Shown: positions 2,849 through 55,729 of the stretch, piece after piece
Layout of the letters: every line of letters starts with the position of its first letter
Numbering within the stretch: position 1 is the stretch's first letter
Origin: a virus
Strand: one strand, 5' to 3'
IMG/VR virus record: IMGVR_UViG_3300025646_005470
DNA: 64,000 nt
Notes under the pieces: model-generated
The model's input: only the letters and a program-made list of their open reading frames with translations
Told to the model about the DNA's origin: nothing
Databases searched by the model: none
Made by a program: the position numbers and the translations under genes

Positions 2849-3306
2849 AATTTTCCTAACTTTGTTACTCTACGTTTGTGTCTGCCGCCTTCAAACTCTG
2901 TTGTAAAAAATGTTTTTACAATTTTCTTTGCTTGACTTGATGTTGTAAAGTCTGCTCCTAAGCATAACACATTTGCATTGTTATGTCTACGAGCCATTTC
3001 TGCTTCTTTAGGTGTTCTACAAACCACTGCTCTAATATTTTTAAATCTATTGGCCGCAATGCTAACACCGTATCCAGAACCACATACTAATATACCATGT
3101 GAGTATATGTCAAAACTTCTACCAAACTCTTTTACCACATCTGGATAGTCTACTGACTGACCTGGTTCATGTGGTTTTAGATTCTGTATCACTGCTACGT
3201 CAAATTTTGTTGTATCAGAGTTATCAGGAGATATCCATTCTAATAATTTATGTTTCATTTCAAGGCCCCTATGATCTGAGCCCATAATAAGATCAATTGT
3301 TTTCAT
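2839..3306 (-). CDS. rpiB: ribose-5-phosphate isomerase B (RpiB/LacA family)
   Basis: GSDHRG, CGSGYGVSIAANR, ARRHNNANVLCLG, FEGGRH; start moved to ATG 3306 just downstream of a sigma70 promoter. Confidence 0.92.
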   Translation of the reverse strand: MKTIDLIMGSDHRGLEMKHKLLEWISPDNSDTTKFDVAVIQNLKPHEPGQSVDYPDVVKEFGRSFDIYSHGILVCGSGYGVSIAANRFKNIRAVVCRTPKEAEMARRHNNANVLCLGADFTTSSQAKKIVKTFFTTEFEGGRHKRRVTKLGKLCD

Positions 3307-3313
3307 ATATTGT

Positions 3314-3341
3314 ATTATATAACATTTTAGAAAATTGTCAA
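3314..3341 (-). promoter_or_regulatory. sigma70-type promoter, leaderless to rpiB
   Basis: TTGACA-16-TATAAT, 7 nt before ATG, no SD. Confidence 0.75.
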
Positions 3342-3343
3342 GT

Positions 3344-3367
3344 GGAAACGCCATTTCTAGCGTTCCC
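3344..3367 (-). terminator. hairpin after porin gene (terminator-like, no U-tract)
   Basis: GGGAACGCT-AGAAAT-GGCGTTTCC, 9 bp including G-U pairs. Confidence 0.45.
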
Positions 3368-3398
3368 ATTGATCAAGTATGTTCTGATTTGGCCTAAA

Positions 3399-4319
3399 TT
3401 AGAAAGTAAATTTAAGACCAGTTGAATAACTGTCAGTATCTAGTGTAGATCCTGTGTTATCTTCATGCTGATATTCAGCATACGTTGACAACGATTCTGT
3501 TATTCCATACGACACACCAGCAGTATAATATGCTGTTGAGTCTTCAACTTTACCATATCCACCTGTAAATACTGCTTTACCTGATGTGTATGAACCAACT
3601 ACTTCGTTAGCACTTACATCGGTTGTAGTATCTTTAAGTGTATATGAATAACCTACTGTTACTGAGTCTGATGCATCAATAGTAAAACCAGCACCGTAAT
3701 AGTCGATTTCATTGACTCTGTCGTTTGATATACCAGCTGATGCTGTTACCACTCCTTCAGAGAATGTTAACGTACCTTCTTGTACATCAATGCCGTCTTT
3801 GCCAGTTGAGCCATCAATTTTGACTAAACCGTCAAATGTAATTGCACCTACAGAATTACTGTAAGCAATTGTGTTTGTATCACGTGCAAATAAATTTTGA
3901 TCTGCACCTGAGCCGTACACTTCAAATACATCTGTATGACCACTTACATTTGTTGTAAATGGAGATGCTTGACGACCAGCGGATAATGATCCTAATGAAT
4001 CATGATTTAAACCTACATAGGCCAATCTTGAATCAAACGGATTATTGTCTGAATCATCAGTATCAACACCAAGTTCTAGTTTAGCGAAACCAGTAATGCC
4101 TTCGCTAATTGCTTCGCTGGCATCAATACCAATCTTCGATGAGTTATTCTCAGCTTTCATATAAGAGTTACCGCTTGAGTTTTCATCATTGCTAACTTTG
4201 TAGTTGATCGAGCCATAGATTTTTGTTTCTACTGCTTCTGCATCTTTACTACATGCTGTCAATGAGAACGCAAACACGATAATACTCATAAGTGATATAA
4301 TTATAGTTTTTCTCATCAT
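3399..4319 (-). CDS. outer-membrane porin (Gram-negative general porin type)
   Basis: Signal peptide, IYGSINY, SSKIG, DSRLAYVGL, alternating beta-strands, C-terminal GLKFTF; GGAG SD. Confidence 0.85.
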   Translation of the reverse strand: MMRKTIIISLMSIIVFAFSLTACSKDAEAVETKIYGSINYKVSNDENSSGNSYMKAENNSSKIGIDASEAISEGITGFAKLELGVDTDDSDNNPFDSRLAYVGLNHDSLGSLSAGRQASPFTTNVSGHTDVFEVYGSGADQNLFARDTNTIAYSNSVGAITFDGLVKIDGSTGKDGIDVQEGTLTFSEGVVTASAGISNDRVNEIDYYGAGFTIDASDSVTVGYSYTLKDTTTDVSANEVVGSYTSGKAVFTGGYGKVEDSTAYYTAGVSYGITESLSTYAEYQHEDNTGSTLDTDSYSTGLKFTF

Positions 4320-4378
4320 TTTCTCCTTTTCTCAATTCCTTAAAGAATTGTATTTCTAGACTGTGTCTAGATTTATCA

Positions 4379-4407
4379 ACTATATACTAATAGTTGTAAA
4401 CTGTCAA
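4379..4407 (-). promoter_or_regulatory. sigma70-type promoter of porin gene
   Basis: TTGACA-17-TATAGT; leader has inverted repeats at 4355-4371 and 4333-4350. Confidence 0.65.
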
Positions 4408-4420
4408 TAGATATTGTGGA

Positions 4421-4678
4421 TTATTTTTTCTCTTCTACTATATTTTGTGAGCCTCTAATTTCTAATTCTGGTTCTTCTTCTGTTTGTGTTGTAGAAGGAG
4501 ATACTATTTCTTCTAGTATATCTTTTGGATTAATTTCATTATTTTCCAAAGCTCTTAAGCATTCTGCTAAGGTAGGTCTTAACTTCATCCTGTGCATTTT
4601 TGCGGCAATTAAAACTAATTCAAATTTTGATACATCTGGATTTGATTCTAAAACCGAATGTGCAAATACTCTTCCCAT
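4421..4678 (-). CDS. rpoZ: RNA polymerase omega-subunit-like protein
   Basis: MGRV...SKFELVLIAAK...CLRALENNEI parallels RpoZ MARV...NRFELVLLAA...ALREI; acidic tail; AGGA SD. Confidence 0.65.
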   Translation of the reverse strand: MGRVFAHSVLESNPDVSKFELVLIAAKMHRMKLRPTLAECLRALENNEINPKDILEEIVSPSTTQTEEEPELEIRGSQNIVEEKK

Positions 4679-4693
4679 TTTTTCCTTTTCTTC

Positions 4694-4769
<76 letters not shown>

Positions 4770-4777
4770 CTTGCTTT

Positions 4778-4785
4778 TATTTATA
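4778..4785 (-). promoter_or_regulatory. T4-type late promoter TATAAATA
   Basis: Exact consensus 8 nt upstream of tRNA-Thr. Exact copies also at 17846-17853, 45906-45913, 55306-55313, 59281-59288; NATAAATA variants at 8037, 17172, 20103, 29415, 52320, 56860, 61987. Confidence 0.8.
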
Positions 4786-4788
4786 ATA

Positions 4789-4810
4789 GAAGGGCACCTA
4801 AATGCCCTTC
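4789..4810 (-). terminator. intrinsic terminator-like hairpin
   Basis: GAAGGGCA-6-TGCCCTTC after the small membrane gene. Confidence 0.6.
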
Positions 4811-4849
4811 TACTCGATATAAGTTATTGTTGTTATTTGTAACGAGAGA

Positions 4850-5074
4850 TTACTTTTTGCCTCTATTTGAGAGCCAGTAAATAACACCAATAGCAATTAA
4901 CCCTACTACACCAGCATCACCAAGTGAGCTTACTAGTGCAACAAGATTACCTACGACATCTGCAGGAAAAAATGGAACTGATCCAAATACTACCTGCAAT
5001 ACAATGCCTAGTAATAAAAATGTTAAAGCCAAGTCAGTAAGACTAGACAATAACCCTTTAATTTTATCAAGCAT
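4850..5074 (-). CDS. small membrane protein, paralog of 17892-18116
   Basis: MLDKIK...GIVLQVVFG...DVVGN...GVVGLIAIGVIYW; start set at ATG 5074 after AAGGAGG. Confidence 0.75.
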   Translation of the reverse strand: MLDKIKGLLSSLTDLALTFLLLGIVLQVVFGSVPFFPADVVGNLVALVSSLGDAGVVGLIAIGVIYWLSNRGKK

Positions 5075-5170
5075 AATGTTTTCCTCCTTATGAATGATTG
5101 AACATCCCTCTTGATCAATTATTATATTACTATGATTTTTAAATATTGTCAATGCTAAAAATTTTTATTT

Positions 5171-5521
5171 TTATGCAAAAGCATGATGTTTAAATTTTAA
5201 ATCAGGCCTAGATTCTAAAGATTGTCCACATTTATGGGCACATCTATGTAGTTTTGGATTATTTTTATCTTGTAATGTTTGGCCAAAACTATCCACAAGA
5301 TTTTTTCCATACTATTGATTTTTTATTATTTGTTCAAAAGAATAACTGTTTACATTAATAAATTCTTTACCATACTTTTTATATGTTTTAGAAATAAAAT
5401 CATTTGCTTGTAGTCTATTAGTAAGATAAACACGTTGATACGTATAACAGCAAGGAAATACATCTCCATTAGTTGCAAAGAAAACTGCATTTTGTATTTC
5501 TATTGGTTTTTCTAAATTAAG
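5171..5521 (-). pseudogene. C-terminal remnant of a radical SAM (twitch/SPASM) gene
   Basis: Hand translation ...FFATNGDVFPCCY...QIIKNQ*YGKNLVDSF...LHRCAHKCG matches the C-terminus of 35373-36470; no start, one in-frame TAG. Confidence 0.7.
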
Positions 5522-23831: not shown

Positions 23832-24308
23832 TTATAAATTTAACTGCCAATAGTTATAGTTTAGATATCCTGCAAAAGATACCCATAATAGATATGGCAC
23901 CATTAGCCAACTTGCCCAACGATCCACTGACCAAGAAACAATGATGTATATCAACGTACTAGTCCACATTCCTATAATATAGTAAAATGCTAGTTCTAGA
24001 TTTTGTGCTCCAATAAAAACTGGAGTCCATATCACATTGATTGCCATCTGTAGACTCCAAAAAGACATGGTAACAGGTTTCAGTGTGTTTGGCATTGAAA
24101 ACATTATTCTATAAGCACTGGTGGCAATTAAAATGTACAACACTGTCCACACAGGACCAAAAATCCAAGCGGGTGGTTGTAGCTCTGGTTGAATCAATGA
24201 TGTGTACCATTCATTGTCCTGACCAAAATTAAACACAGCACCAGCACTACTGGCCACTACTGTACACAGATAAAACACTATCCATGTTGTGATTTTATTA
24301 ATTTTCAT
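23832..24308 (-). CDS. tspO: TspO/MBR tryptophan-rich sensory protein
   Basis: WYTSL..P..QPPAWIFGPVWTVLY; PYLLWVSFA; start set at MKINK. Confidence 0.9.
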   Translation of the reverse strand: MKINKITTWIVFYLCTVVASSAGAVFNFGQDNEWYTSLIQPELQPPAWIFGPVWTVLYILIATSAYRIMFSMPNTLKPVTMSFWSLQMAINVIWTPVFIGAQNLELAFYYIIGMWTSTLIYIIVSWSVDRWASWLMVPYLLWVSFAGYLNYNYWQLNL

Positions 24309-44738: not shown

Positions 44739-45302
44739 TTAATTACCTTTCTGTTCTACTACACGTTCAACTAATTTTTCTGCTTGTAAATTTCTATAAC
44801 GTTCTAGATCTTGATCTAATCTAAAATATTGAACTTTAAGAATTGTACTTGTAATTAGACCTGTTAGTGTTGTATACAATGCTGTTGACATACCAACTGC
44901 CATGTTTGCCAATGCTGTTTGCACTGAAGAAACATTTGCTATATTAAGGTTACCAAACGCTCCCGCTAACATCAAAATAAAACCACTTACTGTTCCAATC
45001 AACCCAAGTGTTAATAATACATCTGATGCAAACCAACCTGGTTCATGTCTTGTATCAATATTTTCTAATTTTCTAATATCACCATTAGCAAGTTGACTCA
45101 ACTTCCAACTTTCATATCCACAGTGAAATGTCATACCATAGAATATTACAAGAATTAAAAATGATAATTTTGTTTTATCTTGTGTCCATAAATCTTCATG
45201 AACTCCAAAACCTATCAAAACGATTGTTAACGATATGATTAATGTAAAAAACCACCACCACTTTAGAAATATACTGTGTCTTTTTAATGATGCAATACCC
45301 AT
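44739..45302 (-). CDS. MotA/TolQ/ExbB proton-channel family protein
   Basis: LGLIGTVSGF...GMSTALYTTLTGL; track start 45380 lies inside the hsp20 terminator, so start set at MGIASL. Confidence 0.85.
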   Translation of the reverse strand: MGIASLKRHSIFLKWWWFFTLIISLTIVLIGFGVHEDLWTQDKTKLSFLILVIFYGMTFHCGYESWKLSQLANGDIRKLENIDTRHEPGWFASDVLLTLGLIGTVSGFILMLAGAFGNLNIANVSSVQTALANMAVGMSTALYTTLTGLITSTILKVQYFRLDQDLERYRNLQAEKLVERVVEQKGN

Positions 45303-45348
45303 GAGCCATAAATTCCTTTGTTCATAAGTATTTATCGTATTTAAGAGA

Positions 45349-45374
45349 AACCCCGGCATTGTATTACCGGGGTT
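45349..45374 (-). terminator. hsp20 terminator
   Basis: AACCCCGG-10-CCGGGGTT followed by TCTCTT. Confidence 0.75.
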
Positions 45375-45395
45375 CCGCATAATTAAAGTATATTA

Positions 45396-45842
45396 TTACT
45401 TGATTTTGATAGTTCTTGGCTGTTTACCTTCTGGAATAATTCTTTCCATAGATACTTTTAACAAGCCATCTTTCAATTCAGCACCTTTGACTTCAACGTC
45501 ATCGGCTACTGTAAACACTTTTGAAAAGAATCTTTTAGAAATACCCTTGTGGATAACTCCGTTTGATTCACTATCATTTGCTTTATCTTCTTTTTTAGAC
45601 TTGATTGTAAGCATATTTTCTGCATATTCTACATCAATGTCATCTTTGCTAAAGCCAGCAAGTGCCACTTCAATATCATAGGTATTAGCACCTGTTTTAA
45701 CGATATTGTATGGTGGGTAATTTACAGTTGGAATTGCAAACATATCTTCGTCAAACATTCTTTCGAAGTGATCGAACATATTGTCAAAACCAATAGTTAC
45801 AGGACGTAACTGATTAAAAATAGATAGATGTTTATTTGTCAT
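45396..45842 (-). CDS. ibpA: small heat-shock protein Hsp20
   Basis: IGFD, NYPPYNI, IEVALAGF, GISKRFF, GAELKDGLL. Confidence 0.95.
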   Translation of the reverse strand: MTNKHLSIFNQLRPVTIGFDNMFDHFERMFDEDMFAIPTVNYPPYNIVKTGANTYDIEVALAGFSKDDIDVEYAENMLTIKSKKEDKANDSESNGVIHKGISKRFFSKVFTVADDVEVKGAELKDGLLKVSMERIIPEGKQPRTIKIK

Positions 45843-52968: not shown

Positions 52969-53421
52969 TTACTCAATACTGTAAATGGCTGAGTTGGCTC
53001 CGTGTTCTGCACATTCAACACTTACACAATAGCAACGATTGTTTGTTGCTTCTCTGATCAATCCATCTGCATAGTTAAAAGCATGTTCGGCAAATTTCTC
53101 TGCGCCAACACCATCAAAAATTCTAATTTCTGCTAGATCTAATTTTTCTAATTCTCTAAACTTTTCAAGATGTGGATCGTTTTTATCGAGTGCAAGTTTA
53201 TGATCAAAGTGATCTTCTAACCATTTTTTTAGTGGTTTAAGTCCACCAAAATCTACTGCCCAGTTTTTGTTGTCTAAATGATCACAACCAAAAGTAAATT
53301 TAAATTGTAAACTGTATCCATGTAACAAGTGGCAGTGCGAATGGTCTGCGTTTGGTTGTCTAAACACTGCTGACAGTCCTATGTTGTGTCCATAGGTTTT
53401 TGTACTATAATGTTTTGCCAT
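52969..53421 (-). CDS. queD: 6-carboxytetrahydropterin synthase (QueD/PTPS)
   Basis: HSHCHLLHGYS, VDFGGL, FDHK, AEKFA, VECAE. Confidence 0.88.
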   Translation of the reverse strand: MAKHYSTKTYGHNIGLSAVFRQPNADHSHCHLLHGYSLQFKFTFGCDHLDNKNWAVDFGGLKPLKKWLEDHFDHKLALDKNDPHLEKFRELEKLDLAEIRIFDGVGAEKFAEHAFNYADGLIREATNNRCYCVSVECAEHGANSAIYSIE

Positions 53422-53507
53422 AAAGGTCTCCTGTTTCTAACGGCAGAGTGTTTAGTGAGGGTTGACGTTTAGTCCTCATATGCAAAGTGCGTTGTAGCAT
53501 AGTGTTT

Positions 53508-53536
53508 ATAATACACTAAACAACGCACCTTGTCAA
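53508..53536 (-). promoter_or_regulatory. sigma70 promoter of queD inside a nested inverted repeat
   Basis: TTGACA-17-TATTAT; GTGCGTTGT/ACAACGCAC and AGTGT/ACACT arms centred on the -10 box. Confidence 0.75.
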
Positions 53537-53539
53537 GAA

Positions 53540-53818
53540 GATTACTTATGTGGGTTAAAATCCTTTGATATTTGGGATTCAGAACCCTTAAAGTAGTGTT
53601 TTGATGGTTCGTAGGATAACCATCTTTTAAATCGCTTCACACGATCCGACTGGCCGGCCGGATTTTTTAATGACCGTTGCTGTTTGTTAAAAACAGCATT
53701 AAGCATTAGGATCCCGTCGCCCATGGATCTAAAAATCTTTTCCATAGACTTCTCCAAATTGTTAAGTTAGGATCGCTTACCGTCTTTTGATGTAATCTGA
53801 GGCGTTAGGCTTTCTACC
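53540..53818 (-). ncRNA. candidate structured ncRNA, family not recognised
   Basis: Five local helices and two long-range helices in ~280 nt, downstream of a terminator and a TATAAGTA late-promoter variant (53824-53831). Confidence 0.55.
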
Positions 53819-53842
53819 AATTGTACTTATATTTTTAGTGGT

Positions 53843-53869
53843 AAAAGAAGCCCGTTATAGGCTTCTTTT
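53843..53869 (-). terminator. intrinsic terminator (symmetrical)
   Basis: AAAAGAAGCC-7-GGCTTCTTTT. Confidence 0.85.
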
Positions 53870-54042
53870 TAATTATAAAATTTTTGATATAATGAACGAT
53901 ATCTTCCACCGTTGAACTGACCTCTGTCAAGCTCACGTTGGCGTCTTTCAAGATCATAATGATCTTGAGATTGTGCTAGATACTGCTCTTGCCAGTTTGT
54001 TGCTGACTTACCAAATAATGCGTTTAAAATTTGTCTAATCAT
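53869..54042 (-). CDS. 57 aa DUF3563-like protein (not in ORF track)
   Basis: MIRQILNALFG...EQYLAQSQDHYDLERRQRELDR. Confidence 0.65.
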   Translation of the reverse strand: MIRQILNALFGKSATNWQEQYLAQSQDHYDLERRQRELDRGQFNGGRYRSLYQKFYN

Positions 54043-54386: not shown

Positions 54387-54809
54387 CTACTCTTGAACTT
54401 TTATGCCCATAGAACGACATGATCCTTCTACCTGTGCCATTGCTTGTTCTACAGTAAAAGCATTCATGTCTTCCATTTTGTCTTCAGCAATTTTTCTAAT
54501 CTGATCTTTAGTAATTTGTTTGATAGTAGATCTACCTGGAGTTCTACCACCTTTTGATAACCCAACTGCTTTTAATATATAATATGTAACAGGTGGTTTC
54601 TTAAGAACAAAAGAAAAACTTTTGTCTTTATAAACACTAATCAAACATGGAATAGGACCTTCCATGCCTTTTGTTTTATCGTTGAACTGTTTACAGAATT
54701 CCATGATCTGTATACCACGTTGTCCAAGAGCTGGTCCTACAGGTGGAGCAGGTTTTGCCTGTCCGGCTTCTATTACTAATTTTAAAGTCCCAATGACTTC
54801 TTTAGCCAT
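54387..54809 (-). CDS. rplK: 50S ribosomal protein uL11 (phage-encoded)
   Basis: [39 protein letters not shown]; GGAGG SD; rplA absent. Confidence 0.95.
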
Positions 54810-54822
54810 AAACCTCCGTTTG

Positions 54823-55062
54823 TTATGCTGATTCGTTATTTGATTCAGTAGTTGCTTCACCTAAAACTTTTAAGTGTGTTGCAACAGGCTTGCCTTTGTG
54901 TTCAGCAACAGTATATTCCATTGCTTGACCTTGATCAATTTTTGTTATGCCAGCATCTTTAAATGCAGAAACATGAACAAACACATCATTGCCGCCTTCA
55001 TCTGGTACTATGAAGCCAAATCCTTTTGCCGCATTATACCATTTTAATTTACCTGTACTCAT
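54823..55062 (-). CDS. cspA: cold-shock protein
   Basis: [20 protein letters not shown]. Confidence 0.95.
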
Positions 55063-55292
55063 CTGTACTCCTTGTTGTAGTATACTTTGTAAGCACCATT
55101 TGTAGGCAGTAGCTCACATTCTTTTAAACTATCGTTACCTTCAACCCATAGTTCAAATTCTTCTTTGATCTTACCTTGTCCTGTAATTACAGTAACATAC
55201 TTAAGACCTTGATGCTTGTGTTCATGTACAAACTTTGTAAACTCTCTCCAAGCATCTTGTACATAATAACCATGTAAATCTAAACTAGCCAT
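55059..55292 (-). CDS. stand-alone Smr/MutS2 domain protein
   Basis: LDLHG...EF...VITGQG...NGAY; late promoter at 55306. Confidence 0.85.
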   Translation of the reverse strand: MASLDLHGYYVQDAWREFTKFVHEHKHQGLKYVTVITGQGKIKEEFELWVEGNDSLKECELLPTNGAYKVYYNKEYR

Positions 55293-55318
55293 TATATACT
55301 AACTTTATTTATAGTTTC

Positions 55319-55729
55319 CTATATCTTTCCAGCTTCCGTTAACTTTGTACGGTTTTTAAGATGTTGTTCTTGAACATCATCTTTGCTTTGTCCATTATAT
55401 AATACTGCGTAGCCTTCGTCAACCATTTTTTTATTAATGGTTGTATTTTCCCAGACTAGTTCTCCTAGTATACGGCCAAATTTTCCTGTTGCATCTTTGT
55501 GTGTTCTAAGTACTGCCATACTACCGGTTGGATAATGGTCTTTTAAATATTTTTTAGATAATAGTCCAAAACGTTTTTCTTCTAGATCTCTAGTTCTTGA
55601 TTCGGGAGTATCTATTCCTAATAATCGTACACGTTCTTTGTGTCTCCATATTCCAAATCCTAAATCAATATCTACATCAACAGTATCACCGTCTATTACT
55701 CTTAATATTTTACAACTATATTCGTGCAT
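55319..55729 (-). CDS. thermonuclease (SNase-like)
   Basis: VIDGDTV, RLLGIDTPE, GKFGRILG. Confidence 0.88.
   Translation of the reverse strand: MHEYSCKILRVIDGDTVDVDIDLGFGIWRHKERVRLLGIDTPESRTRDLEEKRFGLLSKKYLKDHYPTGSMAVLRTHKDATGKFGRILGELVWENTTINKKMVDEGYAVLYNGQSKDDVQEQHLKNRTKLTEAGKI

Follow-up and report, generated by a model that had tools for sequence, protein, structure and literature searches.

A conserved microprotein gene with a start-codon hairpin lies between a probable late promoter and queD in uncultured marine large phages

The interval 53540–53831 lies within a 64,000-nt stretch of viral DNA (IMG/VR record IMGVR_UViG_3300025646_005470; hereafter the window), in a region where the minus strand carries all genes. 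On its 5′ side in gene order are an Smr-domain gene, cspA, and the gene for uL11 (54387–54860, −), followed, between uL11 and the interval, by two small ORFs, one of which (53869–54042, −) encodes a DUF3563-like protein of 57 aa. On its 3′ side is queD/PTPS (52969–53421, −). The interval itself contains a nearly invariant leader, a variable spacer, a Shine–Dalgarno (SD) sequence, and a 67-codon microprotein gene. The Smr–Csp–uL11 unit is also conserved upstream of the microprotein gene in homologous loci (L004, positions 1690–2871; L003, positions 1630–2326). In locus L004, csp is present twice and the two small DUF3563-type ORFs are missing, which makes uL11 the direct upstream neighbor.

The original prediction described this interval as a multi-helix RNA of ~280 nt, of a family that was not recognized, transcribed from a late promoter of its own between a terminator and the queD promoter. 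This anatomy of the transcription unit, including the conserved TATAAGTA/TATAAATA box, is borne out. A terminator-type hairpin with a T-run (53843–53869, −), found by reading the sequence, ends the gene for the 57-aa DUF3563-like protein, and its stem is kept in homologs with different sequences; a simple terminator scan did not detect it, as the T-run forms one portion of this stem. The TATAAGTA box (53824–53831, −) is invariant across 21 homologs, with TATAAATA in its place in L004, the most divergent of them. Of the nine exact copies of TATAAATA in the window, eight are on the minus (coding) strand and precede genes; neither TATAAGTA nor TATAAATA occurs in the window more often than expected by chance or in shuffled sequences. 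The TATAAGTA box is probably a T4-type late promoter, as judged from its invariance. Several TATAAATA copies in the window directly precede genes or tRNA-Thr.

The 3′ boundary of the interval is set by a sigma-70-type promoter for queD (TTGACA-17-TATTAT; 53508–53536, −), which matches 11 of 12 consensus positions, directly follows the stop codon of the microprotein gene, and is invariant in homologs. Neither the terminator scan nor sequence reading found a terminator between the 67-codon ORF and queD. The queD promoter and leader (53422–53541, −) are almost invariant among the 21 homologs; a 7-bp inverted repeat, a possible operator, flanks the queD −10 box. Downstream of the promoter, the queD leader has a GAGG/CCTC hairpin and then a conserved block that reaches the SD sequence, and it matches none of the Rfam preQ1 classes, even at an E-value of 10. 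In addition, the invariant end of the microprotein gene (CAT AAG TAA TC; 53542–53552, −) reads ATAAGTAA, one base from TATAAGTA; it may serve queD as another box of the late type, one that overlaps the end of the microprotein gene.

Homologs of the microprotein gene occur at four loci in IMG/VR contigs (one contig is 328 kb) and at 28 loci in marine metagenomes, as found by searches with the 67-aa translation. A profile search of 5.8 billion proteins returned 18 clusters, none of them named, and an exhaustive HMM search of 1.84 billion representatives added one divergent member, P0019; two further HMM matches, to long proteins, were rejected as repeat-protein artefacts. The locus has no match in GenBank phage DNA, and divergent DNA copies encoding P0017 and P0019, proteins with 44–55% identity, were not found in viral_contigs or genome_contigs. 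In every locus, queD is directly downstream of the microprotein gene. The microprotein gene belongs to uncultured marine large phages; for a neighboring gene, which encodes a 453-aa protein, the closest cultured relative is in Pelagibacter phage Mosig (45% identity). Two further proteins, P0016 (85 aa) and P0018 (44 aa), are identical to the family in their N-terminal 25 residues and unrelated afterwards; they look like frameshifted copies and may be sequencing errors or decayed copies.

The ORF (53542–53745, −, stop codon included) is a real protein-coding gene. All 28 complete copies retain it intact; the remaining five frames hold 2–10 stop codons. Among 21 distinct homologous sequences of 67 codons, variable columns number 18, 14, and 38 at codon positions 1, 2, and 3, respectively; on the tree of homologs, these positions change at 0.78, 0.52, and 1.67 parsimony steps per site. 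The median dN/dS is 0.168 (251 pairs; dS up to 0.93), and residues are kept via several codons (four for Leu26, three for Arg24). All indels are in frame, namely a loss of 15 nt (five codons) in the L004 group, a loss of 3 nt in L026 and L027, and a gain of nine residues in P0017. The original prediction had pointed to an overlapping ORF of 67–71 aa preceded by GGAG. The ATG start of the 67-aa form is conserved, whereas in most homologs the TTG start of the 71-aa form does not share the reading frame; because TTG is out of frame wherever the spacer between the SD sequence and ATG is 7–8 nt, the product is taken to be 67 aa.

The microprotein is an orphan. Its most conserved part is the motif KRWLSYEPS (codons 41–48), and it has a basic, polar C-terminal half. 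Uncharged stretches reach about 10 residues at most, too short for a membrane helix. An AF2 model has two helices at low confidence (pLDDT 57.9). No credible match was found in Pfam, where PB1-F2 scored 17.2 bits, below the 27-bit cutoff, and was judged spurious; no relatives were found in PHROG or PDB, and Atlas scores were all ≤0.81.

Between the TATAAGTA box and the ORF, two segments with very different rates of change precede the SD sequence. The first is a nearly invariant 5′ leader of 49 nt (53775–53823, −), which changes at 0.28 parsimony steps per site, compared with 1.9 in the adjacent spacer; it is sixfold slower than the synonymous third codon positions of the gene, and also slower than codon positions 1 and 2. 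By itself, the leader does not fold (−4.6 kcal/mol, z +0.86), and its sequence is unique within the window. It does not behave as a mobile module in viral_contigs, where an 18-nt leader pattern (16 specified bases) was found before the microprotein gene only: the scan returned the four known contigs and six matches in unrelated contexts that were taken as chance. Two specific roles for the leader were considered and rejected. uL11 is encoded by the phage itself, and mimicry of the uL11-binding region of 23S rRNA gave an alignment with E. coli 23S rRNA positions 1051–1108 that did not stand out from shuffles (p 0.27). An upstream ORF (TTG/ATG, ~18 codons) has all three codon positions equally invariant, a frame broken by a 10-nt deletion in L004, and a stop codon that is not conserved.

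The second segment is a variable A/U-rich spacer (53756–53774, −; 1.9 steps per site, with indels), which starts with a GATCC(C) element. GATCCC in the spacer pairs with GGGATC of codons 11–12 with a mean probability of 0.49. The SD sequence GGAG (53752–53755, −) is present in all homologs although the spacing sequence differs, and is located 6–8 nt 5′ of ATG (6 nt in the window). In the folded homologs it is mostly free, with a mean unpaired probability of 0.66–0.87.

The start codon itself is paired. A hairpin with a 9-bp stem and a 13-nt loop (53719–53749, −) has ATG in its 5′ arm (53741–53749) and codons 7–9 in its 3′ arm (53719–53727). All nine pairs are invariant in the 21 sequences, and variation is confined to the loop. 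The hairpin has a folding energy of −10.9 kcal/mol (z −2.79) and a mean pair probability of 0.94, and the unpaired probability of AUG, averaged over the 21 homologs, is 0.02–0.03. Folding and conservation show in this way that AUG is occluded by an invariant hairpin. Among 52 SD-preceded ORFs in the window, the initiation region ranks second for structure (mean of the set, −3.4 ± 3.3). The most structured of these 52 minus-strand initiation regions is that of a 71-aa ORF starting at 24047 (−), with −15.4 kcal/mol for positions −17 to +28; this ORF may also be under folding control.

Small genes whose mRNA is silenced by folding raise the idea of a module resembling a type I toxin, in which a small toxic peptide would be made only after activation by antisense RNA or processing. 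The small size of the gene, the unusual folding of its initiation region, and the occurrence of hairpins in the 5′ UTR as well as in the ORF are features shared with aapA3 (PMC6733600), and pairing of the 5′ and 3′ ends of the interval is possible (probability 0.54). However, the charge distribution described above is not that of a membrane peptide, the SD sequence is free and AUG alone is paired, and the gene is syntenic beside queD in every phage copy rather than mobile. In addition, no conserved antisense promoter was found; the only promoter-like site on the plus strand matches 9 of 12 positions, and its −35 element is not conserved. A toxin module is therefore a most improbable reading of the locus.

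Structure over the rest of the interval was assessed by folding, by comparison of homologs, and by Rfam search. On the minus strand, the 292-nt RNA folds with −70.0 kcal/mol, compared with −56.95 ± 4.43 kcal/mol for dinucleotide shuffles (z −2.95; 1 of 200), with the plus strand equally stable by this measure (z −3.39). Among 873 minus-strand segments of the same length, scanned with adjustment for GC, the interval has a residual z of −0.83, and 161 segments fold relatively better. The fold thus stands out from shuffled sequences but is unremarkable against the background of the genome itself, and a helix density unseen elsewhere, as originally proposed, is not upheld because the region is ordinary after regression on G+C. 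The most stable stretch in the same scan is 3213–5183 (−; residual z −3.0 to −3.8), which holds tRNA-Thr (4694–4769) and mostly coding sequence; 45115–45625 and 55043–55480 (−) also fold above expectation for their G+C content (z −2.1 to −2.9).

All eight helices named in the original prediction consist of complementary arms in the window, and three of them are kept in the 21 homologous sequences. Hairpin H4 (53603–53624, −; 7 bp, 8-nt loop) covers codons 41–48 (pair probability 0.98; −8.5 kcal/mol, z −4.41): 100% of its cells are paired in the homologs, and its changes lead to wobble pairs only, which are the sole synonymous substitutions available. The codons of its loop, TCC and TAC, are both rare and invariant. 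The 6-bp core of hairpin H2 (53678–53698, −) has a mean pair probability of 0.85; one of the seven pairs originally listed cannot form in 16 of 21 sequences, and L004 has lost the helix. Hairpin H5b (53557–53581, −; 5–7 bp, 11-nt loop) has a pair probability of 0.88 but is weak (−3.4 kcal/mol) and is deleted in L004. H1 (GATCC, 53710–53714/53725–53729) competes with the stronger, invariant start-codon hairpin, a stem absent from the original list.

The two helices that would organize these elements into one architecture fare less well. In the closing helix H7 (53792–53797/53540–53545), a U–A pair is lost to C/A without compensation in five sequences, and the 5′ arm is deleted in L004; its mean probability across homologs is 0.54. 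The long-range helix H6 (53770–53775/53642–53647) and helix H3 (53644–53650/53657–53663) share bases and are therefore mutually exclusive. Only 74% of cells are paired for H6, 76% for H3, and 68% for H5a.

Covariation gives these helices no support. The RNAalifold covariation term is +1.38, and double changes are seen at two to three pairs, compared with 0–2 in slid controls. Two pairs of H5b have double changes at synonymous sites; as proof of structure these were rejected, because they rank 139th among 1485 column pairs, a level of background association that comes from shared ancestry, and 21 of the 1485 random column pairs are as pair-compatible. Positive covariation is absent because the conserved helices are invariant or change to wobble pairs only. 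At gathering thresholds, Rfam 15 recovers six tRNAs in the window and nothing at the interval. In permissive mode, the best non-tRNA match is RNAIII (RF00503; 25.1 bits, gathering threshold 47), which was taken as chance because its alignment contains many gaps and extends into the upstream gene.

These results bear directly on the possibility that the interval is a structured non-coding RNA in its own right, ~280 nt long and closed by pairing of its 5′ and 3′ ends, in which the ORF would be fortuitous. The stability relative to shuffles, the presence of every helix in the window, and the predicted closing helix would fit such an RNA. The strong coding signature (dN/dS ~0.17, in-frame indels) opposes it, as do the uncompensated mismatches and the L004 deletion in the closing helix, the poor conservation of H3, H5a, and H6, the background level of covariation, and the absence of an Rfam family or of outlying fold stability. 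In the homologs it is the protein that is conserved, without covariation above background, and the folding score does not stand out from the rest of the genome; both outcomes, conservation of the protein without covariation and an unremarkable folding score, had been named beforehand as speaking against the RNA. A non-coding RNA of this kind is scarcely credible.

The coding sequence is nevertheless unusual at the nucleotide level. GC3 is 0.43–0.48 in all homologs, compared with 0.204 ± 0.051 (maximum 0.354) in 53 long ORFs and 0.17–0.26 in neighboring small genes. Codon usage is atypical for the phage and includes invariant rare codons such as TCC, TCG, and GCC; TCC accounts for 2.8% of Ser codons in the long genes of the phage. 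The native coding RNA folds more stably than RNAs recoded synonymously according to phage codon usage (z −3.4 to −6.5), and the same holds against versions in which its codons are permuted (z −1.9 to −4.2). Together with the hairpins inside the gene, the abnormal, conserved G/C-ending codons show that the coding sequence is also under selection as nucleic acid.

Local hairpins do not explain this constraint in full, because most of the invariant G/C-ending codons (10, 12, 30–33, 44–45) are outside them. Third positions change at 1.27 steps within the four conserved hairpins and at 1.94 steps elsewhere, a difference that is not significant (p 0.11), and invariant synonymous sites cluster only marginally (p ~0.05). 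The remaining constraint may come from DNA-level dyads or from pairing with the leader over long range, for instance of the C-rich leader block with codons 9–11 or of GATCCC with codons 11–12.

If dyads in the DNA were the cause, inverted repeats in the gene and leader would bind a protein controlling the late promoter and the queD promoter on either side. Three dyad-symmetric blocks (codons 6–12, 30–34, and 41–48) are invariant at synonymous sites, the leader lacks an RNA fold, and the two strands fold equally well, all of which would fit such DNA elements. However, the blocks are not repeated elsewhere in the window, and a translational role fits the start-codon hairpin better. The changes in H4 all give G–U wobbles, which RNA tolerates but which are mismatches in a DNA repeat; no other synonymous changes, however, were available there. 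Control through DNA elements is accordingly rated as very improbable.

A dual-function RNA, serving both as mRNA for the microprotein and as a regulatory RNA whose leader, for example, pairs with a target or titrates a factor, would explain why the leader is nearly invariant yet unfolded, like a seed or binding region, and why the nucleotide constraints on the ORF extend beyond the protein and local hairpins. RNAIII, itself the best non-tRNA Rfam match, is far below threshold in a gappy alignment. No complement of the leader of at least 11 nt was found elsewhere in the 64-kb window, and no discrete RNA is predicted, because the transcript has no defined 3′ end or terminator. The slowly changing leader, the buried start codon, and the abnormal synonymous sites give partial support to some function of the RNA beside the ORF, as the original prediction had allowed for. 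A regulatory RNA of the kind described here is considered improbable.

The interval is thus quite likely the 5′ part of a late phage mRNA for a conserved 67-aa microprotein and not a non-coding RNA. Translation of the microprotein is probably limited or regulated by mRNA structure. In the proposed mechanism, transcription would start late in infection, a few bases downstream of the TATAAGTA box; the invariance of the box, the TATAAATA variant in L004, and the strand bias of TATAAATA point to this. The transcript would begin with a conserved, unfolded leader of ~49 nt, continue through the variable A/U-rich spacer to a free GGAG, and present AUG locked in the 9-bp hairpin with codons 7–9, so that initiation would be intrinsically poor. 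Initiation may simply be kept low, or the hairpin may be opened by a factor that recognizes the conserved leader. A protein or an RNA chaperone could act in this way, as could pairing over long range between the leader and codons 9–12. With no terminator downstream of the ORF, transcription probably extends into queD.

A bolder version of this mechanism, rather unlikely at present, is that the leader and the G/C-rich blocks (codons 9–12, codons 30–34, and the H4 loop) form a new cis-regulatory RNA element that conditionally opens the buried start codon. Such an element might serve a phage protein as operator or act as a switch of the long-range or tertiary kind and, if real, would couple production of the microprotein to the following 7-deazaguanine (queD) module. 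For annotation, the consequence is that a false candidate RNA family is removed and replaced by a conserved microprotein gene that had not been annotated. The locus also provides a compact test case for translational control via mRNA folding in uncultured marine large phages, combining a buried start codon, a leader conserved beyond protein-coding positions, and synonymous G+C twice that of the genome. The mechanism is of a known type, and the only unusual part of the locus is the unexplained nucleotide constraint.

Several known systems resemble the locus in part. Staphylococcus RNAIII/hld (RF00503) and SgrS/SgrT are dual-function RNAs. As in these, a small ORF and several hairpins are found in one transcript; unlike these, the RNA here has no defined end, and the RNAIII model is far from its threshold. 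In hok, a type I toxin mRNA is kept translationally silent by folding. In the Helicobacter type I toxin mRNA aapA3, hairpins in the 5′ UTR and coding region restrain translation (PMC6733600). The present locus shares with aapA3 and hok the small ORF and the hairpins in the 5′ UTR and coding region of the mRNA, and differs from them in that the peptide is not hydrophobic, the SD sequence is not sequestered, the search for antisense RNA turned up no promoter kept in homologs, and the gene occurs in synteny beside queD in the phages.

Two comparisons concern T4. The autoregulatory leader of T4 gene 32 has a conserved 5′ element and then an unstructured A/U-rich stretch that leads into the ribosome-binding site. 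The arrangement here is similar, with a conserved 5′ leader, a candidate protein operator, followed by an A/U-rich stretch; unlike in gene 32, no pseudoknot is predicted in the leader. In T4 e (lysozyme), soc, and I-TevI, the initiation region is in a local hairpin, and promoter choice together with RNA folding sets translation: the late transcript is open because the late promoter is located inside the hairpin. At the present locus, by contrast, the box is ~80 nt upstream, so that the late transcript would contain the whole hairpin; AUG rather than the SD sequence is paired, and there is no sequence relationship. What the microprotein gene has in common with e, soc, and I-TevI is the placement of the initiation region in a local hairpin and, probably, the involvement of a TATAAATA-type late promoter.
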